Source: Candidatus Kaelpia imicola (lineage in GTDB: Bacteria; Omnitrophota; Gorgyraeia; Kaelpiales; Kaelpiaceae). From it: DNA of 64,000 nucleotides. This document shows, piece after piece, positions 1 to 43,144 of the stretch. A program made the position numbers and the translations under genes. Location: contig JAVCCL010000026.1 in assembly GCA_030765505.1 (NCBI GenBank), positions 34,679 to 98,678 of the forward strand, read 5' to 3'. Position 1 is the first letter of the stretch. Each line of letters begins with the position of its first letter. The notes beneath the pieces are model-generated. The model was not told the DNA's origin. It ran no database searches and saw nothing but the letters and a program-made list of their open reading frames with translations.

Positions 1-162
1 CTTTAGAAATAGATACTATCTTATTATAAAACATTTTCGCTTAAGAGATTTGCCGTATTTAATCTTGTCGCTATTTTTTTATGATCTGCCGCGAGTATTT
101 TATTTGGCAACGGTTGATTATAAGATGGTAGAGAGATCTCTGGCTGATCTGAGTACTATGTT

Positions 163-936
163 ATGGAAAGAGAACTAATATTAAAGAACATAAAAAACCT
201 TAAAGAGTTAACCGTTCGTAATATACGTTTAAAATATGCCTCTACACTCTTAGGCGTAGCCTGGGCCGGTTTGATACCGCTTCTTCTTATGGGTGTGATA
301 GGCTTTGTTTTTATCAGAGTCTTTGGGGTCTCTAAGGAGAATTTCCATGTTTTTGTTCTTTCGGCTCTGATTCCCTGGCTCTATTTTTCCAACGTTATAG
401 TCGAATCTACAGAGGCATTTATGAGAGAAAAATCTATTATGAATCAGTTTGACTTTTCAAAGATCATCTATCCGCTATCCATTGTTCTTTCAAATACGGT
501 TGAGCATATAATAGCCATTCTCTTCCTATTGCCTGTATTTATCTTTTTTAATAAGGCCTTGATTTTTAAATTTCCATTACTGGTCTTACCGATTCTAATC
601 GCTGTAGTATTTGCAGCTGCATTATCTTTGATGGCGGCTATAGTAACTCTATATTTCAGAGATTTCCGGCATCTTCTTGGAGTTCTCTTAATGGCTCTCT
701 TCTGGCTTACCCCGGTTTTCTATTCGCCTTACATGGTTCCTGAGAATATAAGGTTCCTGATATTCTTAAATCCTTTAACATATTTTATCGAACTCTATAG
801 AGGTATATTTATTGCCGGCTACAACCCCTTTTTAAAGAATACATACCTCTATGTTTTAATAATAGGGGTTATCTCTGTTTTATTTGGATTCCTGTTATAC
901 AGAAAAACAGAGAGAGAGATATTGAAGAGGAATTAA
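163..936 (+). CDS. ABC-2 type transporter permease (Wzm/TagG/KpsM-like polysaccharide exporter)
   Basis: 257 aa with about six hydrophobic helices and an ABC-2 permease pattern. It sits immediately upstream of, and is start/stop coupled to, an ABC ATPase. Confidence 0.8.
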   Translation: MERELILKNIKNLKELTVRNIRLKYASTLLGVAWAGLIPLLLMGVIGFVFIRVFGVSKENFHVFVLSALIPWLYFSNVIVESTEAFMREKSIMNQFDFSKIIYPLSIVLSNTVEHIIAILFLLPVFIFFNKALIFKFPLLVLPILIAVVFAAALSLMAAIVTLYFRDFRHLLGVLLMALFWLTPVFYSPYMVPENIRFLIFLNPLTYFIELYRGIFIAGYNPFLKNTYLYVLIIGVISVLFGFLLYRKTEREILKRN

Positions 937-937
937 G

Positions 938-2827
938 ATGAGCGATACTATAGCAGCAATAAAGATGGAGGGGCTCTGTGAGTATTACAGGGTAAGGTTT
1001 TCCTATCCCGATAAGTCTGTTGATAGAGAGATAAAAGCTCTTGAGGATGTAAGCCTTGAAATCAAAAAAGGAGAGTCCGTAGCGCTGCTCGGCCCAAATG
1101 GGGCTGGAAAGACTACGTTGCTTAAGTCGATTGCGGGAATACTCAAGCCGGACTCTGGGACTATAAATGTGGAGGGTAGAGTGAGAGGTATCTTTGCTCT
1201 TGAGGCAGGATTTATCCCCGATCTTACAGGATATGAGAATCTTAAAATGGTACTCAAGCTTTATGAGATAGAGAATGAGGCTGTTCTAAGAAATATAGTT
1301 GAATTCTCTGAACTTGGAGATTTTATATATGCTCCTTTAAAGACTTATTCCCAGGGGATGTATCTACGTTTGGCATTCTCTCTGGCCATACATACAGATC
1401 CGGATATCTTGATAGTAGATGATATTCTAGCAGTCGGAGACTACCATTTTCAGCGGAAATGCGTAAAGAGAATAAAAGAGATTACAGACTCTGAAAAGAC
1501 AGTGATTATAGTGACCCATAATTTTGATTTAGCAGAACAGTTATGTTCAAAATGTATAGTTTTAGAGAAAGGTAAAATATTTGCAGAAGGTAATATAAGC
1601 GAGATGAGAAATATATTCTTTGAAATAGCAGGAGATCTCTGGGGCAGCGGTTATATCAAAAATAGAGATCTCAATGTCGTATTTAATAATGGGAAGATTA
1701 TCTTAAGATATAAAGGTACTCCTTTAACGGCTGATATGGGCGGTTTCTTGAGTTTTAGAAAAGATGGCGGTGTTCTCTATTCGACCGATTTTAAATGGGA
1801 CGTAAAAGAATACAAAGATAGATTGACGGCGTATGGGCTAAATAAAGAAGAGGAGATATGTAAGGTAGAGTTAGAGTTAAACCCTGAAGGTATAAACTAT
1901 ACTTTAGAGGGCAGATATCCAGAGCTTGAAATAAATTTTATGCTTAAAGATGTATATTTAGAAGCCCGGATGGATGATGATTCGATTGAGCTCCCTATAG
2001 TAGGAAGAGAACTTGCGAGAGAGTGGAAGAAGATAGCCGAGGCTAAGACAAACTATGTAAAACTGATACCCGAATCTGGCAAAGGATATCCCGAAGTATC
2101 TTTTATAGTTTACTCCGATAAAGAGGCAAAGATAGAGCTCTTCAACCATTATTTCAATACCTCTATGAGGATAGTACGGATTACAACATCTCAACCCCGC
2201 ATCAATATCTGCATGATATTGAATCCTGTTCAAAGAGGGGGAGCGGAAAATATCGACTTAAAAAGTAATGTAGTCTTAAAAGAGTTAATTAAGCTAATAA
2301 ACAGCAATCTGATGGAGCTGTGGAATATAGATACTCCTCTGTTAAAAGCGATTAACTTTATCTCTCATTTTCAAGAAGAGGTATTCGAAGATTTTAAATG
2401 CGAATTGTTAAATCAGTCAGATTTGTCAAATCTGCAAATGATAATAAAATTTTCTAAAATTGACGTCTCCCTGCTTTTGATAGTAAGCATAAACTCTTCG
2501 GGTTTAACTTTTAATTTTTCTTCTTTTACTCCCGGTGCTGCTGTCCATTTAACAGGTATAGGGTTTGTATTGGATTCAAGAGCAAAATACAGGTACTATA
2601 ATTCCGATATAATTGAAGGGGTGGTTGGAGAAGAGACCAGTGTACTGACAACGGACTCTCTGACGCTCTCTTCTTCAAAAGACAACATGCCGGAATTAAA
2701 ACTTACTTTAAACAACCCTACAAGTTTAGAGATTATAGAGGATTGGTATTATAAGAGTGCTACTAATTTAAATTTTTCGCCCCATTTAAGAGAGAATAGT
2801 TTTTCAATCAAAATAGCGGTATTATGA
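938..2827 (+). CDS. ABC transporter ATP-binding protein with ~400-aa C-terminal extension (Wzt/TagH-like)
   Basis: Walker A GPNGAGKTT, signature-like YSQGM, Walker B ILIVDD and H-loop VTHN in the first ~230 aa. The remaining ~400 aa is non-ATPase, as in O-antigen Wzt proteins whose C-terminal domain binds glycan caps. Confidence 0.85.
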   Translation: MSDTIAAIKMEGLCEYYRVRFSYPDKSVDREIKALEDVSLEIKKGESVALLGPNGAGKTTLLKSIAGILKPDSGTINVEGRVRGIFALEAGFIPDLTGYENLKMVLKLYEIENEAVLRNIVEFSELGDFIYAPLKTYSQGMYLRLAFSLAIHTDPDILIVDDILAVGDYHFQRKCVKRIKEITDSEKTVIIVTHNFDLAEQLCSKCIVLEKGKIFAEGNISEMRNIFFEIAGDLWGSGYIKNRDLNVVFNNGKIILRYKGTPLTADMGGFLSFRKDGGVLYSTDFKWDVKEYKDRLTAYGLNKEEEICKVELELNPEGINYTLEGRYPELEINFMLKDVYLEARMDDDSIELPIVGRELAREWKKIAEAKTNYVKLIPESGKGYPEVSFIVYSDKEAKIELFNHYFNTSMRIVRITTSQPRINICMILNPVQRGGAENIDLKSNVVLKELIKLINSNLMELWNIDTPLLKAINFISHFQEEVFEDFKCELLNQSDLSNLQMIIKFSKIDVSLLLIVSINSSGLTFNFSSFTPGAAVHLTGIGFVLDSRAKYRYYNSDIIEGVVGEETSVLTTDSLTLSSSKDNMPELKLTLNNPTSLEIIEDWYYKSATNLNFSPHLRENSFSIKIAVL

Positions 2828-3483
2828 AGAAGAACCATATAGAGAGAGATGGTATTAAACTGGAGTTTCTTTTAGGATATGCCGCCTTAAGCTATAGGAA
2901 TATTATACTAAGTAAAAGTTGTGGATTGTATTCCAGCATCTATCATAACAATACTTGGTATGATTCGCGCTTTGCAACATGGCAGATATTAGATTCAAAT
3001 AAGGAGAGTATATCTTTATACGGAGAGTGGGCAAATCTTCCTCACAGACAGAGCTGGGATTTTAAGTTCAAAGACGGTAAATTACATTGGACTCTAAGAT
3101 GGGAAAATTTGAGGGATTTAAGCTTAGATATGATCCAACAGAATTTTATGCTTATAGATGAATATACTGATTTTTTGGTCAAGGATTATGCTCAGGGTAA
3201 ATTTCCAGAATATTTCTCTAATTTTAAAGGCTTGCTTTGGGATAGAATCTGGTCTATGCCTCAACTGAAAGATAGCCAGATAACATTTAAATCGGCCAAT
3301 AGCTCTGTACCGAATTTAACCTGGATATCGGTTTTAACCAAAAAAGATACCTTATGTGTGATTGAGAATACAGGTTTTGAAGATTCAGCCAGAGTATTAC
3401 AATTACTTTTTGTAAATACAGAAGGCGGTCCAATCAAAGACAACTGTACCATATCGCTAGAGAGTGTGCTGAAAATTGATTAA
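2824..3483 (+). CDS. hypothetical protein
   Basis: 219-aa ORF. ATGA overlap with the upstream gene. No recognisable motif. Confidence 0.45.
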   Translation: MKKNHIERDGIKLEFLLGYAALSYRNIILSKSCGLYSSIYHNNTWYDSRFATWQILDSNKESISLYGEWANLPHRQSWDFKFKDGKLHWTLRWENLRDLSLDMIQQNFMLIDEYTDFLVKDYAQGKFPEYFSNFKGLLWDRIWSMPQLKDSQITFKSANSSVPNLTWISVLTKKDTLCVIENTGFEDSARVLQLLFVNTEGGPIKDNCTISLESVLKID

Positions 3484-4243
3484 GAGAGCCAAGCTTATTT
3501 TAAAAAAACTGCCATCTTTTTTAAAAGATAAGGGTATAATTATAACTTCTATTAAAATCTATGAGTATCTGCTCTTTAGAACTGCAGAGAGAAAAAAGAG
3601 AAAGGCAAAACCACTCTCAATCTTAAAAGATGATATTACGGTAATCACAAACTCAAAAGGTGTAAGTTTAATAGCAGGGGGAAGATTTATCACAAATAAT
3701 GTCGGGTTCCATAGCGCTATTAAAAATCTGGAAAAATGGCACGATTCAACACAGGCCGAATTTAAGTTTATAAAAAGAGCAGGTTCTCTTATTATCAAAG
3801 AGTGGTGGTGGAATCTGCCTCTTAAGTATAAATGGGTCTTTACTCTTAAAGAGAGAAGTATTCTTTGGAAAGGCTCGCTCATAGTCGAGAACTATATTAT
3901 GATTGAAGTGATAAAAACTGGTTTAATTGTTAATAATATTTATGACAGTCTGGTTCTGGGTAAGAAGAGTCTGGACTTACCTGAAAAGAGCCTTCAATGG
4001 CAGGAGATGGATAGGATCGGGAAAAGAACTCTCTTGACTCTAGGCGTTAAAGATAACCCTCTCAGCTTCCCGGATTTGAAATTCAAGATAATCAACTCGC
4101 TCTATCCCTGTAAGATGATAGTACAGAATACAGATAATTATCTTAACGGTAGGTTGCTGCAGATGATCATGGAAGATGAGAGAGAGTACAGGTCGGGCGA
4201 ATATGAGCTTTTTGAGTTGGAGATTTCGGTTATTAAGAAATGA
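3476..4243 (+). CDS. hypothetical protein (TTG start; possibly 3' part of a frameshifted gene with 2824..3483)
   Basis: 255-aa open frame with no in-frame ATG near its 5' end. Only a TTG at 3476 overlaps the previous stop. It is in a different frame from the upstream ORF. Confidence 0.4.
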   Translation: MIKRAKLILKKLPSFLKDKGIIITSIKIYEYLLFRTAERKKRKAKPLSILKDDITVITNSKGVSLIAGGRFITNNVGFHSAIKNLEKWHDSTQAEFKFIKRAGSLIIKEWWWNLPLKYKWVFTLKERSILWKGSLIVENYIMIEVIKTGLIVNNIYDSLVLGKKSLDLPEKSLQWQEMDRIGKRTLLTLGVKDNPLSFPDLKFKIINSLYPCKMIVQNTDNYLNGRLLQMIMEDEREYRSGEYELFELEISVIKK

Positions 4244-7200
4244 AAGTAGCGCTTCTAAATATGCCTTGGAAATGTCACGGACTCTGGGGGGTAAGAGCGG
4301 GTTCACGCTGGCCTCATCTAAGAGATCCAAATAATGAAAGAGATTATCTGCCTTATCCTTTTTTCTTGGGTTATGCAGCGGCATTATTAAAAAAGAATGG
4401 ATTCAGTGCGGTTCTCATAGATGCAATAGCAGAACAGATAGAGATGCCTGATTTCATAAGGGCTCTTGAGGAGGAGAGACCTGATCTGATAGTTGCCGAG
4501 ACATCAACTCCCTCTTTAGATTACGACCTCTCTCTTGCTCAAAGAATAAGAGATATCGCCCCTATTGCATTCTGCGGTCCGGAACAGAACATAAGAGATG
4601 TAGATTTTTTAAAGGAAAGAGATTTTATCGACTATGTCTTAATCGGCGAATATGAAAATATACTTCTCAGCCTGGCTTCTGCTTTAAGAGATAGGAGGCC
4701 GCTCTCTAAAGTAAAAGGTATAATTTATAGAGAGAACGGCAGAATAGTTAAAAACGGCCAGGCTGACTTAATAAAAGAATTAGATACCCTTCCCTGGCCT
4801 CAGAGAGAAGGTCTTTTTATGGAGCATTATGTCGATGCTCCCGGCGGTATGCCTCTACCGTCTGCCCAGATGTGGACATCGCGAGGCTGCCCCTTTAAAT
4901 GTATATTCTGTCTCTGGCCTCACATAATGTATCACGGTAATACTTACCGAATACGGGATATTTTCAATGTGGTAGATGAGATGGAGTATCTTATAAAAGA
5001 GAGATGTTTCAAATCCATATATATTGATGATGATACTGCAAACGTGAATAAAAAGTTTTTGATGGGAATTGCGGCTGAGATCAAAAGAAGGAAGTTGAAA
5101 TTCCCCTGGGCTATCATGGCCAGGCCAGACCTTATGGATAGAGAGTTACTCTTTAGTTTGCGCCAGGCAGGGTTATATAGCGTAAAATATGGGGTTGAGT
5201 CATCTTCTCAGAGGCTTATTAAAAACGCCAATAAGAATATGGATTTAAAATACGCGCTTAAGATGATCAGGCTAACCCACTCTTTGGGCATAAAGACACA
5301 TCTTACCTTCACTTTTGGACTACCTGGGGAGACAAAGAAGACAATAGAGAGGACGATAGACCTGGCTTGTGAACTAAACCCTTACTCGGTTCAGTTCTCT
5401 CTGACTACGCCATTCCCCGGGACAAGTTATTTTAAAAGTCTTAAAGAGAAGGGCTGGATTGAGCCGGATGATTGGAGTTCTTTTGACGGACATAAAGCCT
5501 CTATTGTAAATCTTACCGGTCTTAAGTCAGAGGAGCTGGAAAGGTCTCTGTTTAAGGCCTATAGAGTGTGGAATCAGAGTAAGAGAGACTCTCTGCTTAA
5601 GAAAACTAAAATCGAAGAGATAAAGTCATTTTGGAACTACCTCAATCTCTATGGTGTTAAATTTGCATTACAGAAAAAATCTTCTTACCTGCATGTAAAA
5701 CAGCAATTAAAGGCTGAAGAAGGCAGCAGACAACAGCAAGCCGAGAATAATGCTGTATTGAAAGGTATCTTGAGCGGCCATACCACTTATAGCGGTCCCA
5801 AAATAGCAGTTATAGATATAACCAATAAATGTAATTTAAACTGTATAGGCTGCTGGCTCTATTCACCCTATCTAAAAGGAGTAAAGAGAGAGAGATTAGA
5901 AGAAGAGCTGGATTTAAATACCATAAAAGATGTTGTTGATGAGCTCCATAAGGGAGGGGTAGAGGAGATACAGATCTCAGGCGGCGGAGAACCGCTGATT
6001 CACCCTGATCTTTTAAAAATCGTTAAATATATAAAGATAAAGAAGATACGCTTACACCTTGTGACTAACTTTACTCTCTTCAACAAAAAACTCATAGATG
6101 AACTCTTTAAACTCCGGATAGACTATATTACTATCAGTCTCTGGGCAGGAGATGCAAAGACCTACCTTAAGACACATCCAGGTTCAAAGCCTGATATGTT
6201 TGAGAAGATAGCCGTAAACATAGAATATTTGCTTAAGAGAAGAGAGGAGGATAGACCGATTGTCAAAATATATAATGTGATATCCAAGGTAAACTATCGT
6301 AACATTCCTCAAATGCTGGATTTTGCATTAGATAGAGGGGTAGACTATCTTGAGTTTCAGTTGATGGAGCCAATAGAAGGCAAGACAGAGCATCTGGTTG
6401 TTACAAAGAAAGAGGCTCTTGATATTAATGAGATGCTTATTCGGTTTAAAGATCGCAAAGATTATGTACCGGATTTTATATCAAATGAAGATCTTGAAGT
6501 TTTTGAGTTGTCTTCACATAAAAACGAGCTTAAGGATTTTGGTAGATTTTTAAAGAAGTTCAGAAAGGGGTTCAACCTCACTAACGGCATAAGGCTGGCA
6601 AGATGCCCTGACGGAAAGTACAGCGAAAAGAGAGTACCTTATCCGCCAAAAGATGTAAGACATATAAACTATTATTTTAATCGGGATATATGCAGAGGGT
6701 GCAAGCTGCATCAAAAATGCTATAAGGAGAATAGCGAGACACCGCTTGAAGTAGATCTTTTGACGGTTTTAGGAATTGAGACTTTTCTGAGGCGTGTAGA
6801 TTCAATATCCAAAGAACGCTTAAATTTAGATGGGGAGTTCGTAGATTCGCTGCCCTGTTATGTAGGATGGTATTTTACAAGGATAACCACCAGCGGTGAT
6901 GTTAAACCCTGCTGCAAGGCGGAGGATATAGTGCTTGGCAATATTAAAGAGAGCCGTTTTCAGGATATATTCTCATCCAGCTCTTACAATAGGTTCCGTT
7001 ATAACTGCAAGAATCTCTCTAAAAAAGAGGACTATTTCTCAACTATAGATTGCTACAGAGTCTGCGATAATCTCGGAATGAACCTAAATACCCATAGAGA
7101 GATATTGGATAATATTAGACTCAGAGACTATAGTTCTTCGGATGTTAAATACCATAAGAGAAGCATTGTAATACCGGCTAAAAGTTTTAAGTACGGTAAT

Positions 7201-9993: not shown

Positions 9994-12900
9994 ATGGAGA
10001 CAGCTATTTTTCCTAATTATCTCATGGTTCAAACAGTTGCAGGCTGTAATGCTAGCTGTTATTTCTGCCCCTACCCCTATCTTAAAGGCAGGATAAAATC
10101 TCAAAAGATGGACTTTAAAATCTTCAGAAAAATAATCGATGAGTGTAAAGACTATAAGGATTTGAAAGTGGTGATGCCTTACCTAATGAACGAGCCCCTG
10201 CTTGATAGAGAGATAGATAAGAAGATAGTCTATATCAAAAAGAGGTTGCCCTGGAGCTCAGCTCATATCTTAACCAACGGCAGCCTTCTGGATGAAGATA
10301 TGAGTCTTAAGCTTATTGGGAGCGGTATAGATTGGGTTGGGTTTAGCCTGCACGGAATAACCGAAAATACTATCAAGAAGACTATGGGCTTGGATTTAGA
10401 GAGAGTCTTGGATAATATATCGAACTTTATAAAAATTGCCCAGAGAGATAGAAAAGATATAGCCGATTTTATAATGCTCACTCTCATAAAAAATGAGAGA
10501 TTATCAGAAAAGGAGCTTGAAGATGCAGTCAGTTTTTGGAAGAGAAAAGGCATTAAAAGAATAAGCAGATACTCTCACCCTATATCTAGAGCTGGCAATG
10601 TACCTCTGCTGAATAAAGTAAGAAATGAGAGACTGTATGGTTGTAACTCTATCTGGGCCGATAAGATGATCCATATTCTTTCAAATGGAGATGTAGTCCT
10701 CTGCTGCATGGATTGGAAGAGAGAGGCTCTGCTGGGTAATATTGAAAAAGATTCTCTCTATGATATCTGGCACTCAAAAAAATATAATAATTTAAGAAGT
10801 CAGATAGACGGGGAGACGGCGGCAGAGAAAGAACTGATATGCCTTAGGTGTGAATGCGCCCAGTCAGAACCCAGGAGAGAGAATAAGAAGATAACCTTGA
10901 TCATTCCTCCACCCTGGGGTGTTGAGAGGCCCCCTGTTGGTTTAGCTGTAATAGCCGAGGTATTAAGAGCATCTGGTTATAGGGTAAGAGTCATGGACTT
11001 AAATCTTAAGATTCATAACTCTGTAGATGAGGATGATAGAAAGTATTGGGGGATGGACTGCTCCCTTTACTTTAGAGATAAAAGATTCATCGACTCTCTA
11101 ATGGAGAAGTATGCTGATCTCTTCTCTGAAATAGAGGATGATTTTAAGAGCGACGATTCAGGTATAGCTGCATTCTCGGTACCTACAAATTCAATGTATC
11201 TAATGCTGAAGTGGATGATTGAGAAGATAAAATATAACCAATCTCGGAAGAAAATTATACTAGGGGGGATTTCGGTTACAGTAAAAGAGCAGAGAGACGA
11301 GCTTTTTGAGATTCTAGGCAATCTTAACTTGATAGATGCGGTAGTTCTTGGAGAAGGCGAAGATACCATTTTAAAGCTTGTTCATAAGTTATCCGGCAAC
11401 AGGTCTATAGTCGATGTCAAAAACACCGTTATAGTTCAAGACGGCAATTTTATAGAGACAGAACCCGGAAAGATAGAGAGCTTAGACAGAATCCCTTTTC
11501 CTAAATATGAAGGGTTTTTGCTTAAAGAGTATACAAAGAGTAACAGCATCTCTTTAGAGCTCTCCCGGGGCTGCATAGGCAGATGTAGTTTCTGCAGCTT
11601 TAAGATCTTAAGCTCTTCTTACAAAAGAAAATCTCCTAAAAGAGTAATAGCTGAGCTTAAGTATTATAAAAAAGAGTTAAAAAAAGAGTATTTCTCTATC
11701 GTGGACTCATCGATAAATGCTGATTTAAAATGGCTGGAAAGATTATCTGAACTGATAATAAAAGAGGATCTTAAGATAAAGCTTACAGCCCTTGCAATAC
11801 CGCGGGGAGATATGAACATGGGGCTGCTTAAAAAGATGAAGAGGGCAGGTTTCTATAGATTAGAGTATGGAGTAGAGAGCGGCTCCAGCAGAATACTTAA
11901 GCTTATGGGTAAGACGTTCTTGGCAGAAGACGCAAAAAGGGCTCTCTCTTTGACGAAGAGAGCAAATATAAAAAACGTACTCTACTTTATTGTCGGGTTT
12001 CCAACCGAGAGCAATGATGATTTTCAGAAGACACTTGATTTTATAGAATCGAATAAGACGAACATAGATTATGTTAAATCTGTAAATCCTCTCTTCCTGA
12101 TGGCCGGCTCAGAGATATTTGCAAACCCTGAAAAGTTTAATATCAGACTGCCTAACGAAAGTCCTGATATCAAATGGTTCATAGAAGGGGAGAATGATTT
12201 TGATCTTAGAATGGAGCGGGTTAAAAGAGTACATAGGCTTTTAAGAGAGTTAAACATCTCTTATACCACTGAAGCAACGGCTTTACCGGATGAAGAGAGT
12301 AAGGTCAAGAAGAAGGATATAGCTCTTGTTACAACAGCTCCCTGGGGCATCAATAATCCGCCTCTGGCGCTTGGATATCTGGCAGACTATCTTAGAAAAC
12401 ATAACTATGACCCCGCTGTATTTGATTTTAATATTGAATTTTACAACTCTATAGATAAAGAGTTGCAGCATCTCTGGCATGTTGAGAACAAGAACTTCTG
12501 GAGAGACAAAGAATGGTTTGATATTATCCTGAAGATCTTTGACAAAGATATAGATTTGGCCGTAAACAGAATAATAGAGAGCGGTGCTGAAGTCATAGGG
12601 TTCTCTGTGGTAGATCCTAAAGAACGGCTGACAATAGAATTTATAAAGAGAATAAAGGCAAAGGATAGCTCAAAAAAGATCATCTTGGGCGGCCCTGCTA
12701 CATTGACGGCACATTCAAGAAATATTTTTATAGATAACATCGCAGAGCATATAGATTTTTTTGTCGTTGGGGAAGGAGAGGAGACGCTCCTTGAGATAAT
12801 GAAAGACGGGAATTGCAAGGATATTTCTGGAGCAATAAGGATGGTTAATGATAAACCAACTGCATTAAAAGAGAGAGCGGTAATAAAAGATTTAAATAGT

Positions 12901-13929
12901 ATACCATACCCCGGCTATAGAGATTTTGATCTGAGTCTCTATCCGGGTGAGTCTCTTATTCTGGAGTGGTCCCGGGGCTGTATAGGAAGTTGTGCTTTCT
13001 GTATTAATCATGAGCTTATAAAAGGCTACCGTTCACGTTCTGCAGAGCATATCTTTGAAGAGTTAAGATATCACACGGATGTTAACGGTATAAGTAACTT
13101 TACTATCTGCGATCCGCTCTTAAATGGAAGCCCTCAAATTTTAGAGCGGCTTTGCGATAAGATCATAGAGAGTGGACTTAAAATAGAGTGGACAGGTGAG
13201 GTTATGCCTAGAAAGGATATGGAAATATCTACTCTTAAAAGGATGAGAGAGGCGGGGTGTGTTAAGCTTCAGGTTGGACTGGAGAGCGGTTCTGATAAAG
13301 TCTTAAAGAGGATGCGTAAGTTATACAACGTTAAGACAGCTGAAGATTTCTTGAGAAAAGCATCTCTTGCAGGTATGGAGACAGAACTTTTTGTCATGAT
13401 AGGTTTTCCATCTGAAGATGAGATTGAATTTCAGAAAACAGCAGATTTCTTTAGACGTAACAAAGAGTATATTAACACTATCAAATCGATAAATACTCTT
13501 CACCTTATAGCAGGTACGGATCTATATAAAAATTACTCTAAATTTAAAATAAAGCCTTTACCCGACGACAACTGGCACTATCTCTGGGAGACCGAAGACG
13601 GCAACAGTTATCCTTTAAGGAGAGAGAGGGGTGAGTCTCTTCTAAGGTTGGCAGAAGAGCTGGGTTTTAAAGTTATGGAGACAAACCTAGAGGAGGGTAA
13701 GCAGCAGAGAGAGAATAATGTCGATATCTCTAGGCTAGAGGTTCTTGTAAACAGAATTCAGTCTCTTCCTCGGGAGAGAAGAGATTTATCAGGTGAGGTT
13801 TTAATTCCAAGAAAGCGAATCTTAAAACTGCCTTACCTGGTTTTGATAGTTGTTCTAACTTTGGCAGCAGAGGTATATCTTTGGTTCTTGAGAAAAGCAA
13901 GGAGAATGATAATCTTTCCCGGAAGTTAA
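9994..13929 (+). CDS. giant tri-domain radical SAM protein: SPASM-type rSAM plus two B12-binding rSAM modules, C-terminal TM anchor
   Basis: 1311 aa. CxxxCxxC motifs at nt 10045-10068 (AGCNASCYFC), 11572-11595 (RGCIGRCSFC) and 12979-13002 (RGCIGSCAFC). There is a Cys-rich CCMDW...CLRCEC tail after module 1. B12-binding-like segments IIPPPWGVERPPVGLAVIAE and TTAPWGINNPPLALGYLADY precede modules 2 and 3. A hydrophobic helix LPYLVLIVVLTLAAEVYLWFL sits near the C-terminus. The start codon abuts the stop of the upstream mega-ORF. Confidence 0.85.
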   Translation: METAIFPNYLMVQTVAGCNASCYFCPYPYLKGRIKSQKMDFKIFRKIIDECKDYKDLKVVMPYLMNEPLLDREIDKKIVYIKKRLPWSSAHILTNGSLLDEDMSLKLIGSGIDWVGFSLHGITENTIKKTMGLDLERVLDNISNFIKIAQRDRKDIADFIMLTLIKNERLSEKELEDAVSFWKRKGIKRISRYSHPISRAGNVPLLNKVRNERLYGCNSIWADKMIHILSNGDVVLCCMDWKREALLGNIEKDSLYDIWHSKKYNNLRSQIDGETAAEKELICLRCECAQSEPRRENKKITLIIPPPWGVERPPVGLAVIAEVLRASGYRVRVMDLNLKIHNSVDEDDRKYWGMDCSLYFRDKRFIDSLMEKYADLFSEIEDDFKSDDSGIAAFSVPTNSMYLMLKWMIEKIKYNQSRKKIILGGISVTVKEQRDELFEILGNLNLIDAVVLGEGEDTILKLVHKLSGNRSIVDVKNTVIVQDGNFIETEPGKIESLDRIPFPKYEGFLLKEYTKSNSISLELSRGCIGRCSFCSFKILSSSYKRKSPKRVIAELKYYKKELKKEYFSIVDSSINADLKWLERLSELIIKEDLKIKLTALAIPRGDMNMGLLKKMKRAGFYRLEYGVESGSSRILKLMGKTFLAEDAKRALSLTKRANIKNVLYFIVGFPTESNDDFQKTLDFIESNKTNIDYVKSVNPLFLMAGSEIFANPEKFNIRLPNESPDIKWFIEGENDFDLRMERVKRVHRLLRELNISYTTEATALPDEESKVKKKDIALVTTAPWGINNPPLALGYLADYLRKHNYDPAVFDFNIEFYNSIDKELQHLWHVENKNFWRDKEWFDIILKIFDKDIDLAVNRIIESGAEVIGFSVVDPKERLTIEFIKRIKAKDSSKKIILGGPATLTAHSRNIFIDNIAEHIDFFVVGEGEETLLEIMKDGNCKDISGAIRMVNDKPTALKERAVIKDLNSIPYPGYRDFDLSLYPGESLILEWSRGCIGSCAFCINHELIKGYRSRSAEHIFEELRYHTDVNGISNFTICDPLLNGSPQILERLCDKIIESGLKIEWTGEVMPRKDMEISTLKRMREAGCVKLQVGLESGSDKVLKRMRKLYNVKTAEDFLRKASLAGMETELFVMIGFPSEDEIEFQKTADFFRRNKEYINTIKSINTLHLIAGTDLYKNYSKFKIKPLPDDNWHYLWETEDGNSYPLRRERGESLLRLAEELGFKVMETNLEEGKQQRENNVDISRLEVLVNRIQSLPRERRDLSGEVLIPRKRILKLPYLVLIVVLTLAAEVYLWFLRKARRMIIFPGS

Positions 13930-13932
13930 TAT

Positions 13933-15114
13933 ATGAAGATATTGATGCTGCATCCACATGACATCTTTCATTTAAGTGAGCCTTGGACGATAAGGATAAA
14001 ATCTATAGCTAAAGAGTTCAAGAGAGAAGGTCATGAAGTAAGAATAGCCTATTTCCCGCTTAACCATAAAAGTCTCAGGAATTCGCTCTTTAACTATAGC
14101 GGTATTGATATAATAACCTTGGACAGAAGAAGAGGTCTGGGGGTATTCTTTAAAAATATCAAAAGACTTATAAAAGAGGTTGAATGGGCAGATATCGTCC
14201 ATTTTCAAAAATGTTTTCACTACTGCTCTATTCCCGCTGTAATAGCAGCTTGGATAAAAAATAAACCTTTACATTATGATTGGGATGACTGGGAGACAAA
14301 AATATATTTTTACGGAAAACCGGCCTCTCCAGTTATAGGACTGTATATCTGGATGCTTGAAAGAGCGTTGCCGAAGTTTGTAGACTCTATCTCCCTCTCC
14401 AGCAGAAGGCTTGCCCAGCTCGCAACGGATAACTACGGTATATCCAAAAAGAGGATTACAGCTGCTCCTGTAGGTGCGGATTCAGATGAGTTCAAACCTG
14501 AGAATAGAGGAGAAGAGATAAGGAGAGAGTATCGCATCAATGGACCCATAGTCTTATACCTTGGTCAATTACACGGCGCCCAATATGCTGAACTGCTGAT
14601 TCATGCTGCAAAGATTGTTATCCAGTGGCATCCGACAACAATGTTCTTTATTGTCGGAGGGGGCTATAGGTTGGAAGAGCTCAAAAAGACGGCAAGAGAG
14701 TTCGGGCTCTCAGATAGGATCATATTTACCGGCTCTCTTCCTCATAGTCAGATGAGGAGATATACAGCAGCAGCCGATGTCTGTGTAGGCTGCTTCGCCA
14801 GAAATGATATTACAATGTGTAAGAGTCCTTTAAAACTTGCCGAATATCTCGCATCAGGCAAGGCTATAGTTGCAAGCAATGTGGGTGAGGTTAGAAATAT
14901 GGTCGGAGGAGTCGGTGTATTAGTAGAACCCGGCAATCATATTATCTTAGCAGGCGGAATAAGCGAACTTCTCTCTAGGCCGGATCTAAGAGCAAAGATG
15001 GGTGTCCTGGCAAGAAGAAGAGCGCTTGAAAGATATAACTGGAGCTGGAGCGCAGAGAACATTATGAGCATATACAGAAGAGTTCTTAAGGGTTATGAGC
15101 TTAAAAGATTATGA
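13933..15114 (+). CDS. glycosyltransferase family 1 (GT4-like)
   Basis: 393 aa with a GT-B architecture pattern. The C-terminal region (GSLPHS...EPGNHIILAGGISELL...) is typical of group 1 glycosyltransferases. Confidence 0.8.
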   Translation: MKILMLHPHDIFHLSEPWTIRIKSIAKEFKREGHEVRIAYFPLNHKSLRNSLFNYSGIDIITLDRRRGLGVFFKNIKRLIKEVEWADIVHFQKCFHYCSIPAVIAAWIKNKPLHYDWDDWETKIYFYGKPASPVIGLYIWMLERALPKFVDSISLSSRRLAQLATDNYGISKKRITAAPVGADSDEFKPENRGEEIRREYRINGPIVLYLGQLHGAQYAELLIHAAKIVIQWHPTTMFFIVGGGYRLEELKKTAREFGLSDRIIFTGSLPHSQMRRYTAAADVCVGCFARNDITMCKSPLKLAEYLASGKAIVASNVGEVRNMVGGVGVLVEPGNHIILAGGISELLSRPDLRAKMGVLARRRALERYNWSWSAENIMSIYRRVLKGYELKRL

Positions 15115-16192
15115 GCTGGTATTTATAACAAGAGAACCCCCTGAGCTTTCCGGAGCAAAGTACAGAGCTTATAATTTCACAAAGATATTAAAAGAGAGCG
15201 GGTATAGAGCCGAGGTTATATCCTACTCTGCAGACCTTGGAGCTTATTCGGGTATCTTAGAGCAGTATCTCTCAATAGCTGATAAGATAGGCTATAATTT
15301 AAAAGCCTATCTTAAGTTCAGGCAATACAAGAATCCTGTTTTTATAATTCAGCGCTTTAATTATCACTCTCTGGCTCCGCTATTGTTCTGTCTTAAAAAC
15401 AGGATAAAATTCGTATATGATATAGATGATTGGGAGTTTAGGGAGAATATCGATTATTTTAAAGGTCTATTTCCAAGATCAAAAGCAGAGTTTCTGTTCA
15501 GAAAGACAGCAAAGAGAGCGGCTCTCTGTATAAGCGGAAGCCATTATCTGCAAAACTATATAATTACCATTACACCAAAAAGCTATTACCTTGCTCCGGG
15601 AATAGATACTGAATTATTTAAACCTGAAATGGAGAAGGCTGCTTTAGCCAAAACTTTAGCCTGGGTGGGAACAATGTTCAGAGAGGAGGATTACATCAAT
15701 TTAAAGTATCTCTTCAAGATAATGAAAAATTTACCTCATCTTACACTTGAGGTAGTAGGAGACGGTCATTATAAGAATAAGATTGCAGCAGAGTCCAAGA
15801 GACTAGAGCTTAAAAATATCGTCTTTAGAGGCTGGATGGAGAGTTCCAGAATCCCTGAGTATCTCGAAAATATAAGCTTGGGATTATTTCCTCTTAAGGT
15901 GAAGAACAGATTTACAGAGGCTAAGTTTCCGGTAAAAGTACTGGAGTTTATGAGTAAAGGTATACCTACTGTTGCAACATCATTTGGTGAGGTTAAAAAT
16001 ATAATCAAAGATGGAGAGAACGGCTTACTTGCTGAAGATGAGAATGATTTTAAAGATAAGATAGAGATGGTATTAGAAGATAGCAGGTTATATTCCCGGA
16101 TCTCAAAATCGGCTAGGGAGAGTGTGATAGCAAACTATTCTGACCGCAGGCAGACTCAGAAGCTGATATCAATATTGGATAGAGAGCTATGA
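15095..16192 (+). CDS. glycosyltransferase family 1 (GT4-like)
   Basis: 365 aa. Carries a C-terminal EX7E-type motif region (FGEVKNIIKDGENGLLAEDEND) typical of retaining GT-B enzymes. Confidence 0.75.
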   Translation: MSLKDYELVFITREPPELSGAKYRAYNFTKILKESGYRAEVISYSADLGAYSGILEQYLSIADKIGYNLKAYLKFRQYKNPVFIIQRFNYHSLAPLLFCLKNRIKFVYDIDDWEFRENIDYFKGLFPRSKAEFLFRKTAKRAALCISGSHYLQNYIITITPKSYYLAPGIDTELFKPEMEKAALAKTLAWVGTMFREEDYINLKYLFKIMKNLPHLTLEVVGDGHYKNKIAAESKRLELKNIVFRGWMESSRIPEYLENISLGLFPLKVKNRFTEAKFPVKVLEFMSKGIPTVATSFGEVKNIIKDGENGLLAEDENDFKDKIEMVLEDSRLYSRISKSARESVIANYSDRRQTQKLISILDREL

Positions 16193-17661
16193 ATAAAAAG
16201 GTAGTTCTTATGAACTCTGTAGGTAAGGATGATATCGGACGCTTTATCATACACTCTCCTTCCAGGTGGTCTGAGGGTGTGGAGAGACTATCATCCTGGT
16301 TCTGTTATTATCCATGGGAGCTTGCTTATGCAACTGCCTTACTTAAGAAGAAGACCTCCTATAAAATCAAGCTCATAGATCCCTGCCTCGGGAGGTGGGA
16401 TAAAGAAGAGACTCTGAGCAATATCTTAGAAGAAGAGCCGGACTGGTTGATAGTAGAGAGTGCTACGCGGACAATATCTGAGAATCTCTGGGTCGGAAAG
16501 AACATAAAGAGAATAACTCAGACTAAGATAGTATTCGTTGGCCAACATGCTACTGCTTTTCCTCAAGACCTTATCTCCAGAGGTGTAGATTATGCGGCTA
16601 TCGGAGAGTATGAAGAGACATTACTTGAGTTGTTGGTAACCGAAGATAGTTCTATAGCCGGACTCTATCCAAATCAACGCAGGCCGTTAGTAGATATAAC
16701 AAAATTACCCTGGCCGGAAGATAGAGATCTAAAGAGAATCGAATATGGCAGCCCTGGCGAACCAAGTTCAGAATATCTTGAGATTCAGGCCTATGCCAGC
16801 CGCGGCTGCTACAGAGACTGTCCTTTCTGTGTCGCAAGAAACGTATATTACAACCAATCTAAGCAGAGATTTCGTAAGGTAGCTGATATTATATCTGAAA
16901 TAGAGTATCTAAAAAACAGCTATCCCCGGCTTGAGGGTATTTTTTTTGATGAAGAGTCTCATAACTCAAGCAAAGATTTTATCAGGGAATTAACATCAGC
17001 AATTATAAGTTCAGGATTGAATAGTTTAAAATACGAAGCTATGTGCGACCTGAGATTCCTGGATAGAGAGAGCATGGATTGTATGAAAAGAGCAGGATAT
17101 TACAAGGTTCGTTTCGGAATAGAGACGGCTTCTGAAGAGTTGGCCTTATCAATAGCCAAGCCTATCTCAGTTGATAAAACTCTCTCCACTTTAAGTTATG
17201 CTAAAGAGATAGGGCTAAAGACCTATACTACTTTTATGTTTGGTTTACCTGGTTCAAACGTTAAAAGGGATGGTCAGACAATAGATTTCATCTCCCGTAT
17301 CATAAAACAGGATTTAGTAGATAACATACAGATATCTCTGGCTACACCTCAACCGGGTACCCCTTTCTATAATTGGGCAAAAGAGAGAGACTTTATTACA
17401 GATAACGATCCTCACTCTTTTGACGGAGGAGGACCAGCTATTTTAAACTATCCCGATTATGGAAAAGAAGAGATAGAAGAATTATTGAAAATGGCTGTTA
17501 TAAAAAGAGACCACCTCTTCTTTATGAATAATCTCAGAAAGCATCCCTTTGGTTTTATAGTTAAACGTTACAAGCGTTACGGTTTGAAGTTGTTGATAGA
17601 GAAACTGTTAAGGCGTATTAAAACAGAGCTGCTTTACTTAAAGCTCTCCAAGAGAAGGTAA
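16189..17661 (+). CDS. B12-binding domain radical SAM protein
   Basis: 490 aa. The N-terminus is paralogous to the start of the 4240 gene (SRWS...YPWELAYATALLKKK...KLID). CxxxCxxC lies at nt 16806-16830 (RGCYRDCPFC). Confidence 0.85.
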   Translation: MNKKVVLMNSVGKDDIGRFIIHSPSRWSEGVERLSSWFCYYPWELAYATALLKKKTSYKIKLIDPCLGRWDKEETLSNILEEEPDWLIVESATRTISENLWVGKNIKRITQTKIVFVGQHATAFPQDLISRGVDYAAIGEYEETLLELLVTEDSSIAGLYPNQRRPLVDITKLPWPEDRDLKRIEYGSPGEPSSEYLEIQAYASRGCYRDCPFCVARNVYYNQSKQRFRKVADIISEIEYLKNSYPRLEGIFFDEESHNSSKDFIRELTSAIISSGLNSLKYEAMCDLRFLDRESMDCMKRAGYYKVRFGIETASEELALSIAKPISVDKTLSTLSYAKEIGLKTYTTFMFGLPGSNVKRDGQTIDFISRIIKQDLVDNIQISLATPQPGTPFYNWAKERDFITDNDPHSFDGGGPAILNYPDYGKEEIEELLKMAVIKRDHLFFMNNLRKHPFGFIVKRYKRYGLKLLIEKLLRRIKTELLYLKLSKRR

Positions 17662-17664
17662 TCT

Positions 17665-18600
17665 ATGGAAGAGACTATCTCAGTTGTAGTGGTAAATTAT
17701 AACAGGAGAGAGTATCTTTACAACTGTCTTAAATCAGTCTCAAACCAAAGCTATTGCAATATTGAGCTTATAGTTGTAGATAATGGCTCATCTGATGGTT
17801 CTATTGAGATGGTCGAAGGAGAATTTCCGGAAGTAAAGATAGTTAAAAATAGAGAGAATATATTTTTGGCAACCCCTTATAATCAGGGCATAAGATATTC
17901 TATAGCTTCTCTTATACTCTGTATGAATAATGACGTTATCTTGGAGAGGGATTATATCAAAGAGTCGGTTCCGGTTTTTAAAAAAGATAGACGTATAGGT
18001 TCTGTAGCCGGCAAGCTTATAAACCCAATCACAAAGCTTATAGACTCAACGGGTCAGATATTAACACGCGCCAGGCGCGGCTGTGAGAGAGGTTACAGAG
18101 AAGAAGATTCCGGTAACTATAGTGAAGGATATATCTGGGGAGTAGGAGGAGCGATTGCTTTTTACAGAAGAGAGATGTTAGAGGATATAGAGATAGAGAA
18201 TGAATATTTTGATCAAACCTACAAAGCCTATCTGGAAGATCTGGACCTAAATTGGCGAGGGAAGAAAAGAGGTTGGAAATCATATTTTAAACCCAGCGCT
18301 GTTGCTTTTCATTATCGGGGAGTAACGGGTTGGAGAGAGAGATCTCGTTTTGGGTTCTTAAACCTTAATAATGATCTAAAAGTACAGTATCTAAAGAATA
18401 GATACGCAACATTGATAAAGAATGAGACTCTGGGCGATTATATTAAGAACCTGCCTTACATCCTGCTCTACGATAGCTGCCTTCTGATTCTCTTGATTTC
18501 AATTAACCCCTTATGTATACTGTACCTCGTAAAAGATATCTCCTGGCTTAAGAGTGCTCTCAGGAGAAGGAGAACCATAAAAGAGAGATGGCTAAATTAA
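17665..18600 (+). CDS. glycosyltransferase family 2
   Basis: 311 aa. N-terminal VVVVNYNRREYL...IELIVVDNGSSDGS is the classic GT-A/GT2 signature. Confidence 0.8.
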   Translation: MEETISVVVVNYNRREYLYNCLKSVSNQSYCNIELIVVDNGSSDGSIEMVEGEFPEVKIVKNRENIFLATPYNQGIRYSIASLILCMNNDVILERDYIKESVPVFKKDRRIGSVAGKLINPITKLIDSTGQILTRARRGCERGYREEDSGNYSEGYIWGVGGAIAFYRREMLEDIEIENEYFDQTYKAYLEDLDLNWRGKKRGWKSYFKPSAVAFHYRGVTGWRERSRFGFLNLNNDLKVQYLKNRYATLIKNETLGDYIKNLPYILLYDSCLLILLISINPLCILYLVKDISWLKSALRRRRTIKERWLN

Positions 18601-24228: not shown

Positions 24229-24696
24229 ATGGTTATCGATCAACAGGTAAGGAGGTTGTTGTTACTCATGAAAAGTGAAAAAACTAAAGCAATAGCAGCG
24301 GCTGATTTTTTATATCGGCTGCAATATACAATTAATCAGCCGATAGAGAATATGCAGACAGATAATGGAAGTGAGTTTACCTGGCATTTTGACCGAACAG
24401 CAGATAGATTGAAAATAGATAGATATTTTTCCAGAGTTAAAACACCGAAAGATAACCCTGAAGCTGAGAGATTTAATCAAACTCTAAAATATGAGTGGTT
24501 ATATGATAACAATTTAGATTTAGATTGTGATAGATTTAATAGAGAGTTAACTGAATGGCTGATAGAATACAATTTCAACAGACCTCATGAAACTCTTGAT
24601 TACTTGACTCCTATGGAGCATATAGAAAACGAGTTGACTAAAATTAGAAGCCCTGTCAAAGTGTTACCTATGTGGTCAGCCAGAACATATTCTTGA
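24229..24696 (+). mobile_element. DDE transposase/integrase (rve-type) C-terminal fragment; IS remnant
   Basis: The 155-aa product contains TDNGSEF...PKDNPEAERFNQTLKYEW...YNFNRPHETLDYLTPME. This matches the C-terminal half of an IS3/IS481-type integrase catalytic core. The N-terminal HTH and the first catalytic D are absent, so it is truncated and non-functional. Confidence 0.7.
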
Positions 24697-43099: not shown

Positions 43100-43128
43100 T
43101 TGACATTTTGTTGCTTATGTGGTATAAA
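43100..43128 (+). promoter_or_regulatory. sigma70-like promoter (TTGACA-17 nt-TATAAA) upstream of the 43145 gene
   Basis: TTGACA at 43100-43105, a 17-nt spacer, and TATAAA at 43123-43128. The ORF track's TTG start at 43100 is this -35 hexamer. Confidence 0.4.
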
Positions 43129-43144
43129 TATTACAGGCAGAAAG

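Follow-up and report, generated by a model that had tools for sequence, protein, structure and literature searches.

A conserved Omnitrophota gene cluster with an O-antigen-type ABC exporter, eight radical-SAM modules and an undescribed shared domain

For radical S-adenosylmethionine (rSAM) enzymes, sugar chemistry is known in small molecules alone, such as aminoglycosides and the head groups of hopanoids. GenK and GenD1, for instance, act in the C-methylation of gentamicin. HpnJ takes part in the production of the bacteriohopanetetrol (BHT) cyclitol ether (PMC12324291), and AprD4, a sugar diol dehydratase, contains a related Rossmann-type domain but binds no cobalamin (PMC12931638). In the ATP-binding cassette (ABC) transporter-dependent O-antigen pathway of Escherichia coli O9a, the carbohydrate-binding module (CBM) of Wzt reads a methyl-phosphate cap (PMC3482155). 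Here we analyzed a stretch of 64,000 nucleotides (the window) from Candidatus Kaelpia imicola (contig JAVCCL010000026.1, positions 34,679 to 98,678), an Omnitrophota metagenome-assembled genome (MAG) from Ace Lake, Antarctica, whose description does not mention the gene string studied here (PMC8542988). Ten genes at positions 163 to 18600 form a tightly packed operon with a Wzm/Wzt-class ABC-2 exporter, glycosyltransferases (GTs) and eight intact rSAM modules. We consider it probable that this conserved Omnitrophota cluster builds a lipid-linked surface sugar polymer, remodels it by means of the eight rSAM modules and sends it to the outside via an ABC transporter of the O-antigen type.

Our literature search found no description of rSAM-rich Wzm/Wzt glycan clusters, of the domain described below, or of rSAM enzymes in connection with O antigens, polysaccharides or Omnitrophota. 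A 2026 preprint on giant proteins of Omnitrophota groups radical SAM and GT1 in one "sugar metabolism" Pfam module and analyzes no such cluster. What is new here is the family of recognition domains, together with a complement of rSAM tailoring enzymes that is unprecedented for an ABC-dependent glycan pathway.

The exporter and the domain it shares with tailoring enzymes

The transporter is encoded by two genes that lie 1 nt apart on the + strand. The permease (163..936, 257 aa) belongs to the Wzm/TagG/KpsM class of ABC-2 proteins, has about 5-6 hydrophobic segments and matches Pfam ABC2_membrane (PF01061) at 53 bits against a cut-off of 26.9; its best NCBIfam matches, galactan Wzm/RfbD and KpsM, are far under the equivalog cut-offs. 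The ATPase (938..2827, 629 aa; Pfam ABC_tran) starts with a nucleotide-binding domain (NBD; aa 1-235, 938..1642) supported by ABC_tran, NCBIfam and PDB matches. Its best solved relative is Wzt of Aquifex aeolicus (8dku/6oih, E 1e-53, aligned over the NBD alone), followed by TagH/TarH, mycobacterial RfbE and KpsT. Since its best NCBIfam matches, TagH (160 bits versus an equivalog cut-off of 320) and Wzt/RfbE, are both below the cut-off, the NBD falls within the Wzt/TagH/KpsT clade yet is an orthologue of none of them. A teichoic-acid pathway was ruled out, as no TagF or TagB is encoded in the operon.

The resemblance to Wzt stops at the end of this domain. The alignment to full-length 8dku ends where the NBD does, at chain residue 241, so that no Wzt-type C-terminal CBM was found in it, and the carbohydrate-binding domain (CBD) of Wzt is missing from the top 50 Foldseek matches of a model of the ATPase C-terminus. 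The exporter is therefore Wzt-class in its motor, and its recognition module is unrelated to the Wzt CBM. The initial annotation had taken the ATPase C-terminus for a Wzt-like domain that recognizes a terminal cap; it belongs instead to a different, undescribed family with no Pfam or PDB match. A Pfam search of the operon found no WbdD-like coiled-coil ruler, kinase or class-I methyltransferase either, which leaves the rSAM modules as the sole candidates in the operon for a terminating modification.

Two genes that had been left unassigned as hypothetical proteins follow the ATPase on the same strand: hyp1 (2824..3483, 219 aa) and hyp2 (3476..4243, 255 aa), neither with a Pfam family. Profile comparison showed that these paralogues and aa 242-418 of the ATPase (1661..2191) are copies of one undescribed domain of ~185 aa (hereafter the X domain, aa 51-232 in hyp2). 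Far from being bystanders, the two proteins are thus free-standing versions of the domain found after the NBD in the ATPase. An iterated hidden Markov model (HMM) built from the two hypotheticals recovered the ATPase segment at E 8e-25 and hyp2 at E 3e-44; direct BLAST of the ATPase C-terminus against the hypotheticals is marginal, and the link rests on the iterated HMMs. The X domain corresponds to no Pfam or NCBIfam family and to no PDB sequence. A second all-beta domain predicted by AlphaFold2 further along the ATPase (aa ~469-628, 2342..2821, preceded by a helix) does not match the X-domain HMM, and has 5 homologues among 5.8 billion proteins.

A profile search of 1.84 billion representative proteins retrieved 662 members of the X-domain family, usually with 2-9 tandem copies, and every named member comes from Omnitrophota. 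The best 146 representatives divide into 86 ABC ATPases with 2-8 copies, 14 rSAM proteins and 46 proteins that consist of nothing besides the domain. In fusions to rSAM enzymes elsewhere there are 1-3 copies. Two related loci, which we denote L002 and L004, illustrate this distribution: L004 has five copies in an ATPase of 1352 aa and two in an rSAM protein of 1398 aa, L002 has three in an ATPase-rSAM fusion of 1900 aa, and hyp2 aligns to the copies within the rSAM proteins of both. The domain is present in cis in 88 of the 120 homologues of the first multi-domain rSAM protein of the operon, the exceptions including the type found in Kaelpia and Candidatus Saelkia, where it is supplied as two free proteins. 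It is a concrete new object, an unannotated family restricted to this system, which joins an ABC exporter to its tailoring enzymes via a common module and provides a clear rule for finding such clusters.

The AlphaFold2 model of hyp1 (predicted local distance difference test, pLDDT, 91.9; predicted template modelling score, pTM, 0.87) is all-beta with 18 strands. Foldseek returned 60 PDB matches at E<=1e-3, nearly all of them galactose-mutarotase-like supersandwich domains, with E values down to 5.7e-7, query-normalised template modelling (TM) scores of 0.6-0.69 and ~10% identity. These matches comprise aldose 1-epimerases (3nre, 3dcd), accessory domains from GH36, GH38, GH94 and GH97 enzymes and polysaccharide lyases, OpgD and cyclic glucan synthase, and also take in the P1 domain of YidC. 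A separate and weaker model of the ATPase C-terminus (pLDDT ~74, from a shallow multiple sequence alignment of 5 sequences) gave the same galactose-mutarotase-like matches. The initial annotation had named a non-carbohydrate identity of this region as a finding that would speak against a glycan pathway; in its model it instead appears to adopt a fold typical of carbohydrate-active proteins.

The nearly invariant columns of the X domain are G34, S48, A51, W53, W78, Y114, W139, P163 and N182, and the conserved His/Glu (acid/base) pair of aldose 1-epimerase is not among them. This composition favours binding over catalysis, and the formation of tandem arrays argues for a polymeric ligand. We regard the X domain as a candidate glycan-recognition module of the transporter which, judging from its modelled fold, most likely binds a glycan chain. 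Arrays of up to 8 copies suggest binding along the chain instead of recognition of a terminal cap.

Radical-SAM modules of the operon

The initial annotation counted nine rSAM domains in the window, and this number was recovered: eight units in the operon, all eight with an intact CxxxCxxC motif, and a ninth in a separate gene. Four of the eight are SPASM-type, with three SPASM stretches (PF13186) in the first multi-domain protein and one in the second. The other four are B12-type, that is, they combine CxxxCxxC with an N-terminal B12-binding-type Rossmann domain: unit 1 of the first protein, units 2 and 3 of the second, and a stand-alone protein of 490 aa. None of the units reaches equivalog level for a characterised NCBIfam member (HpnJ, BchE, PhpK, HpnR, AprD4, etc.).

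Mega-rSAM 1 (4240..9993, +, 1917 aa) has an identical counterpart among the recorded proteins of Candidatus Kaelpia imicola and shows four Radical_SAM stretches, three SPASM stretches and a B12-binding domain in Pfam, the latter (PF02310) at only 35 bits. An assembly artefact was ruled out for these giant genes, as seven further full-length relatives of mega-rSAM 1 (1913-1954 aa, 60-82% identity) were found on separate contigs. Its first unit, here called B12A (aa 1-450, 4240..5589; CxxxCxxC at aa 217), is the most conserved unit of the system, with 43-57% identity in all 120 homologues, fusions included. These fusions connect it to the other parts of the pathway. B12A is fused to GT2 and GT1 (with or without a tetratricopeptide repeat (TPR) or a methyltransferase) in P0103 and P0108-P0120, to an ABC ATPase in P0021 (1900 aa), and to X domains in most other homologues. 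The claim that the rSAM enzymes belong to a glycan cluster dependent on an ABC-2 (Wzm/Wzt-type) transporter is borne out by these fusions of B12A to GT2/GT1 and to the ABC ATPase.

The best NCBIfam match of B12A is HpnJ (245 bits versus a cut-off of 577) and its best PDB profile match is AprD4 (6fd2, 2.9e-35; annotated as a radical SAM diol-dehydratase and active in apramycin biosynthesis). It is an orthologue of neither, since its scores lie below the family cut-offs; a hopanoid pathway was likewise ruled out, with the HpnJ score far under the cut-off and no SHC or HpnH among the neighbours. That B12-dependent rSAM enzymes act here as methyltransferases, as the initial annotation supposed, is an assumption, the nearest characterised relatives being HpnJ and AprD4. 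Because AprD4, the closest solved relative of B12A, binds no cobalamin, methylation is not to be taken for granted and is one of several options.

The remaining units of mega-rSAM 1 are all of the rSAM/SPASM type: unit 2 (5755..7104, CxxxCxxC at aa 531; Pfam Radical_SAM and SPASM), which carries a Cys-rich insertion, unit 3 (7690..8874, aa 1177) and unit 4 (8917..9993, aa 1586). Unit 3 is the best conserved SPASM unit, with 47-49% identity to L002 and L004, and is the best match of all three separate SPASM genes in a further locus (L087). Its best PDB match is PqqE (2.9e-6), and the likeness of the SPASM units to PqqE and other maturases is no more than generic. An insert at aa ~975-1105 (7162..7554) is conserved in the 8 full-length orthologues and in P0079 and P0080. 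All six of its PDB profile matches at E<10 are CBM35/CBM6-type (0.037-0.54) and Pfam CBM_6 matches one of seven members (0.027), so that a CBM6/CBM35-like beta-sandwich is possible, these weak profile matches being suggestive only.

Mega-rSAM 2 (9994..13929, +, 1311 aa; Pfam: three Radical_SAM, one SPASM, B12-binding) begins with an rSAM/SPASM unit (aa 1-300, 9994..10893; CxxxCxxC at aa 18), followed by two B12-type units (aa ~301-780 and ~781-1270, together 10894..13803; CxxxCxxC at aa 527 and 996). The B12-type units match the class-B families TIGR03975, TIGR04072, PhpK and MJ0865 in NCBIfam, all below the cut-off (for TIGR03975, 236 bits summed over the two units versus 282), and share 30-34% identity with the single B12-rSAM genes that come after the big rSAM gene in L002, L004 and L087. 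By these sub-threshold matches alone, they look more like class-B methyltransferases.

The protein ends in a small membrane module (13807..13929) with one hydrophobic helix, which hydropathy places at aa 1274-1301. The helix has a conserved acidic residue and is followed by the end ...IIFPGS; the module is kept in Saelkia. Homologues occur as free ORFs of 38-39 aa ending in FPGG, placed after the B12-rSAM gene in L003 (14222-14338) or after the last SPASM gene in L087 (17329-17448). The common pattern is a basic stretch, a hydrophobic helix with an inner Asp/Glu, a second basic stretch and a C-terminal [IF]FPG[GS], both flanks being positive. In Kaelpia, Saelkia and L004 this module is the covalent C-terminus of a B12-rSAM enzyme, and we read the tail of mega-rSAM 2 as a membrane anchor.

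Downstream of the two large genes, and still on the + strand, are a GT4-family (GT-B) glycosyltransferase (13933..15114, 393 aa; Pfam Glycos_transf_1, Glyco_transf_4), a GT1-type (GT-B) glycosyltransferase (15095..16192, 365 aa; Glycos_transf_1), the stand-alone B12-type rSAM enzyme (16189..17661, 490 aa; Pfam B12-binding and Radical_SAM, CxxxCxxC at aa 207) and a GT2 glycosyltransferase with one C-terminal hydrophobic segment by hydropathy (17665..18600, 311 aa; Glycos_transf_2). The stand-alone enzyme has 62% identity to its Saelkia orthologue and HpnJ as its best NCBIfam match (128 bits, under the cut-off).

The ninth rSAM domain is that of a separate B12-rSAM gene at 59823-61217, part of a two-gene module (58063-61217, +). 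The first gene encodes a Pfam-less polytopic membrane protein of 587 aa with ~9 hydrophobic segments and a big loop at aa ~145-330; the second, which encodes the B12-type rSAM of 464 aa, begins before the first has ended. The best match of this rSAM is a B12-rSAM protein of 479 aa in the extended glycan cluster of L002 (243 bits), and for this reason the module may share the pathway of the operon. It may represent a GT-C-like periplasmic step.

Related loci and neighbouring genes

The comparison of related MAGs that the initial annotation had proposed showed the operon to be conserved and syntenic. In Candidatus Saelkia tenebricola (L001) the genes stand in the same order: GT2, permease, ATPase (620 aa), hypotheticals of 226 and 252 aa, rSAM proteins of 1928 and 1310 aa, then GT4, GT1, B12-rSAM, GT2, panB and BrkB. 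A core module, consisting of ABC-2 permease, ATPase with a long extension, multi-rSAM, B12-rSAM, GT4/GT1 and GT2, recurs in more distant Omnitrophota-type loci (L002/3, L004, L087, L089 and the place of P0032). Of L090, which begins where its contig does, just the multi-rSAM gene, the B12-rSAM gene and two GT-B genes are visible. In L089, GT1 is fused to a B12-type rSAM, and the three SPASM units that are concatenated in Kaelpia are separate genes in L087. Between Kaelpia and L087 the GT4 shares 50% identity, a conservation unusually high for an O-antigen-type locus, and it is strongly conserved in L002 and L004 as well; the GT1 shares 35% with its L087 counterpart and the GT2 36% with an L087 GT2. 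It had been suggested that homologues of the multi-domain rSAM proteins occurring consistently without glycan genes would refute the glycan interpretation; glycosyltransferases were present in all ten relative contexts inspected, and the ABC-2 pair in six.

Several functions that a glycan pathway would call for are encoded beside the related clusters. L002/3, L004, L087 and the P0032 place have a neighbouring gene for a WecA/MraY-type initiating transferase (PF00953), the last two of these also a Wzy_C (WaaL-family) gene, and PMT_2 GT-C genes are present in L002/3 and L004; several loci add NDP-sugar epimerase/dehydratase, DegT aminotransferase and carbamoyltransferase genes. A flavoprotein of ~430 aa (Amino_oxidase + NAD_binding_8) always follows the WecA-type gene, in L002 (7910-9220), L004 (3810-5117), L087 (5209-6501) and the P0032 place. 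It directly precedes the ABC-2 permease in the first three loci, and in the P0032 place both genes lie at the cluster's far end. It is absent from the Kaelpia and Saelkia windows; a Glf-like mutase and a sugar oxidase are two possible identities.

A true Glf is found at a comparable position in a polysaccharide cluster of the cultured Psychromonas sp. SA13A (L008 1012-15296, NZ_WTKU01000006.1), which also encodes Gmd, an RmlD-like reductase, GT2 and LuxE/LuxC-like acyl-activation genes. This cluster contains two relatives of B12A, at 6598-8457 and 11600-13438 (~615 aa, 40% identity), each paired with a Glyco_trans_1_2 gene (~630 aa), and offers a cultured, tractable setting for the B12-type rSAM/glycosyltransferase pair. 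The scan of genome contigs for B12A, which covers the matches listed and is no fair census, consisted mostly of distant B12-rSAM genes (26-35% identity) without the system; L007, L008, L013 and a few others were informative.

Two further loci were recorded as observations in their own right. In a Woesearchaeota MAG (GCA_049700835.1, a DPANN archaeon; L088 5819-24446) seven consecutive rSAM genes, with multi-domain products that include 953, 1481 and 893 aa, are followed by GT2 and GT1. No ABC-2 transporter was present within the 24 kb read, and the locus looks like an archaeal counterpart of an rSAM-rich glycan cluster. In L005/L006 (3857-14305) the GT2-B12A-GT1-TPR fusion P0109 adjoins rSAM/SPASM, PqqD and GT1 genes and a peptide-type ABC exporter (ABC_membrane + ABC_tran), then PAPS (3'-phosphoadenosine 5'-phosphosulfate) reductase and sulfatase genes. 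It may be a glycopeptide-type offshoot.

In the window, the ten + strand open reading frames (ORFs) were confirmed with the coordinates first listed, and junctions between genes range from a 20-nt overlap to a 3-nt gap. The initial description of a ten-gene co-directional operon thus stands as to genes, coordinates, strand and packing. Its ends do not, for the operon runs past both. Upstream, an open frame cut by the window edge (2..178, +) is the 3' end of a GT2 gene whose stop overlaps the permease start by 16 nt; across 52 aa, the fragment shares 46% identity with the C-terminal end of the GT2 that directly precedes the permease in Saelkia. Downstream of 18600 the tight packing goes on to 20631 through panB (18588..19445, +; Pantoate_transf, 372 bits), which starts 13 nt within the GT2 gene, and a gene for a BrkB/YihY-family membrane protein (19438..20631, +; Pfam), which overlaps panB by 8 nt. 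The GT2-panB-BrkB arrangement is kept in Saelkia (L001 24638-25787). E. coli YhjD, a member of the BrkB/YihY family, is linked to lipid A export, and the BrkB gene of the operon could be envelope-related. Scans of the operon DNA for promoters and terminators gave results no better than shuffled sequence.

Beyond this gene string the window is housekeeping (gatA/gatB, ctpA, tsaD, polA, glgA, coaE, rho). An ORF of 155 aa at 24229-24696 (+), ~3.6 kb past the gene string, matches only the integrase core rve_3 and is probably an insertion sequence remnant. A protein of 169 aa (31872-32381, +) combines bactofilin with a C-terminal HTH_17 DNA-binding domain, an unusual pairing. Three ORFs on the + strand were Pfam-less at E<=1e-4: 43100-46342 (1080 aa), 32784-34448 (554 aa) and 22106-23074 (322 aa).

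Interpretation and comparison with known systems

In the pathway that we propose, glycosyltransferases would build a lipid-linked glycan at the cytoplasmic face of the membrane, and the rSAM modules would remodel its sugars while it is still cytoplasmic, with mega-rSAM 2 presumably held at the membrane by its C-terminal helix. This would be radical chemistry on sugar carbons, for which deoxygenation/dehydration, ring rearrangement, epimerisation, oxidation and C-methylation are candidates. The X domain, a predicted galactose-mutarotase-like sandwich with conserved Trp/Tyr, would bind the glycan chain: free copies may present it to the rSAM proteins, and the copy linked to the ATPase may select the (modified) chain for export, as a functional analogue and no homologue of the Wzt carbohydrate-binding module. 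The transporter, the fold of the X domain, the fusions of rSAM with GT and ATPase, and HpnJ and AprD4 as sugar-acting relatives make the involvement of a glycan well supported. Distant Omnitrophota share the cluster down to individual glycosyltransferases, which makes a conserved envelope polymer a likelier product than a hypervariable O antigen.

Several points weigh against this interpretation. An initiating phosphoglycosyl transferase, NDP-sugar synthesis gene, ligase or chain terminator is absent from the window and present in related loci only; the search for the initiating transferase (WecA/PF00953, Bac_transf) and the WaaL/Wzy_C ligase covered those ORFs of the window that were scanned. 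The usual substrates of SPASM-type rSAM enzymes are peptides, and the literature search found no precedent for rSAM enzymes acting on polysaccharide. Eight radical sites far exceed the tailoring needed by any known glycan. The neighbours of L005/6, a distant relative, include PqqD, an rSAM/SPASM gene and a peptide-type ABC exporter, and the free 38-39-aa homologues of the mega-rSAM 2 tail can be read as peptides. The fold assignment comes from predicted models only, with ~10% identity and TM 0.5-0.7, and the same fold occurs in the P1 domain of YidC, which has no established sugar role.

Four alternatives were weighed against these data. Cap-dependent export is established for O9a (PMC3482155), and a similar system would have the B12-rSAM modules C-methylate the non-reducing terminus or the backbone, with the ATPase's C-terminal domain reading the cap and setting chain length as in WbdD/Wzt. 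An NBD closest to Wzt, followed by a binding-type domain, fits this idea, as do the best matches of the mega-rSAM 2 units to class-B methyltransferase families (TIGR03975, PhpK, MJ0865), all of which are below the cut-off. Yet the domain is not the Wzt CBM, given an alignment that ends at the NBD and fold matches that lack the Wzt CBD, and its 2-8 tandem copies on ATPases, with further copies on rSAM proteins, fit chain binding or hand-over better. HpnJ and AprD4, to which the most conserved rSAM comes closest, are not methyltransferases, and no WbdD-like coiled-coil ruler, kinase or methyltransferase was found in the operon. We consider such a cap unlikely, if the best placed of the four. Much the same pathway would result if the X domain were catalytic, epimerase/mutarotase-like or phosphorylase-type, instead of serving in binding and hand-over, and its top fold matches do include true enzymes (the aldose 1-epimerases 3nre and 3dcd). 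This is highly improbable in view of the nearly invariant G, S, A, W, W, Y, W, P and N and the lack of a conserved His/Glu pair. Moreover, arrays of up to 8-9 copies on an ABC ATPase are typical of binding modules, and the part that aligns in most fold matches is an accessory domain without catalytic function, from a glycoside hydrolase, phosphorylase or lyase.

The other two alternatives change the substrate. The product might be a glycolipid flipped by the ABC-2 transporter, the rSAM modules methylating, cyclising or cross-linking acyl or isoprenoid chains as in hopanoids, ladderanes and tetraethers. The sub-threshold NCBIfam matches to HpnJ, HpnR, rSAM_ladder_B12 and the tetraether synthase Tes point this way, mega-rSAM 2 is probably membrane-anchored, ABC-2 transporters also move lipid-linked substrates, and the window is without an initiating PF00953 enzyme. 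We nevertheless judge it quite unlikely: the lipid-family matches are far under their cut-offs and stem from the generic rSAM core, a lipid-synthesis gene is missing from all ten contexts while WecA-type, WaaL-family and NDP-sugar genes are present, B12A is fused to glycosyltransferases, and the common accessory domain has a predicted carbohydrate-enzyme fold and tandem arrays that suit a polymer. The least probable of all is a peptide or small membrane protein as the substrate, whether a ribosomally synthesized and post-translationally modified peptide (RiPP) or a glycopeptide. SPASM rSAM and TIGR03975-type B12 rSAM enzymes are typical RiPP maturases, the GT2-B12A-GT1 fusion of L005/6 has PqqD, rSAM/SPASM and a peptide-type ABC exporter as neighbours, and the free small ORFs of L003 and L087, homologous to the mega-rSAM 2 tail, would make the hydrophobic 38-39-aa FPGG peptide a possible substrate. 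Against this, no operon protein matches PqqD or the RiPP recognition element (RRE; PF05402), which appears only in the distant L005/6, the packing of the operon leaves no intergenic room for a precursor gene, and the small peptide is a covalent enzyme C-terminus in Kaelpia, Saelkia and L004, membrane-helix-like as befits an anchor. The transporter is of the ABC-2/Wzt type and no peptide exporter, and the neighbours are WecA-type and WaaL-family genes.

An exported surface glycan remodelled by rSAM enzymes is therefore the interpretation that we prefer. A more far-reaching version, which we put forward tentatively and hold to be somewhat doubtful, is that Omnitrophota make a conserved, phylum-wide envelope polysaccharide in which up to eight or more rSAM sites alter the sugar backbone once the chain has been polymerised, a new cytoplasmic carbohydrate-recognition domain handing the growing chain from the rSAM enzymes to the exporter. 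The changes could comprise deoxygenation, ring rearrangement, C-alkylation and C-C/C-O cross-links. If true, this would be the first radical-SAM-tailored polysaccharide and a new coupling principle for ABC-dependent glycan export, beyond another O-antigen cluster. A polysaccharide modified by a whole set of rSAM enzymes would extend glycan chemistry into a new field, and could explain an unusual, possibly very recalcitrant surface material in a widespread anaerobic phylum of ultra-small bacteria.

Set beside described systems, the cluster shares some parts with each. With wall teichoic acid export by TagGH/TarGH it shares TagH as the top NCBIfam match and second-best solved-structure group of the NBD, but the TagH score is below the equivalog cut-off, the operon has no TagB/TagF-type glycerophosphotransferase, and the host phylum, Omnitrophota, is presumably Gram-negative. 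SPASM auxiliary-cluster domains and class-B-like rSAM modules are common to RiPP systems (PqqE/PqqD, sactipeptide and proteusin maturases), which differ in having an RRE/PqqD, a precursor gene and a peptidase, in contrast to the Wzt-class transporter and glycan-gene neighbours found here. Among sugar-acting small-molecule rSAM enzymes, B12A is nearest to HpnJ (NCBIfam) and AprD4 (PDB), and these two, like GenK/GenD1, abstract hydrogen from a glycoside already on an aglycone. Unlike the substrates of HpnJ and AprD4, the presumed substrate is a lipid-linked polymer and not an antibiotic or hopanoid head group, and the enzymes are concatenated into polypeptides of 1300-1900 aa with a dedicated accessory domain and exporter. 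That accessory domain is like the galactose mutarotase-like supersandwich in its predicted fold, as obtained in two independent models. However, it differs from aldose 1-epimerase in length (~185 versus ~290 aa) and in having no conserved catalytic pair, and its cytoplasmic context, fused to ABC ATPase or rSAM, is undescribed for the fold.

The closest overall parallel is the ABC-dependent O-antigen pathway (E. coli O8/O9a WbdABCD + Wzm/Wzt; A. aeolicus 6oih, 8dku). As there, a permease stands beside an NBD with a C-terminal extension, and the nearest sequence relative of that NBD is A. aeolicus Wzt; the operon includes cytoplasmic glycosyltransferases; related loci have WecA-type and WaaL-family genes next to the cluster; and cytoplasmic modification would be followed by recognition for export (PMC3482155). 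On the other hand, the extension is a new galactose-mutarotase-like domain that is also present on the tailoring enzymes, the Kaelpia operon is without a WbdD-type terminator, tailoring would be carried out by eight rSAM modules, which is unprecedented in that pathway, and the cluster is conserved across the phylum and not serotype-variable.

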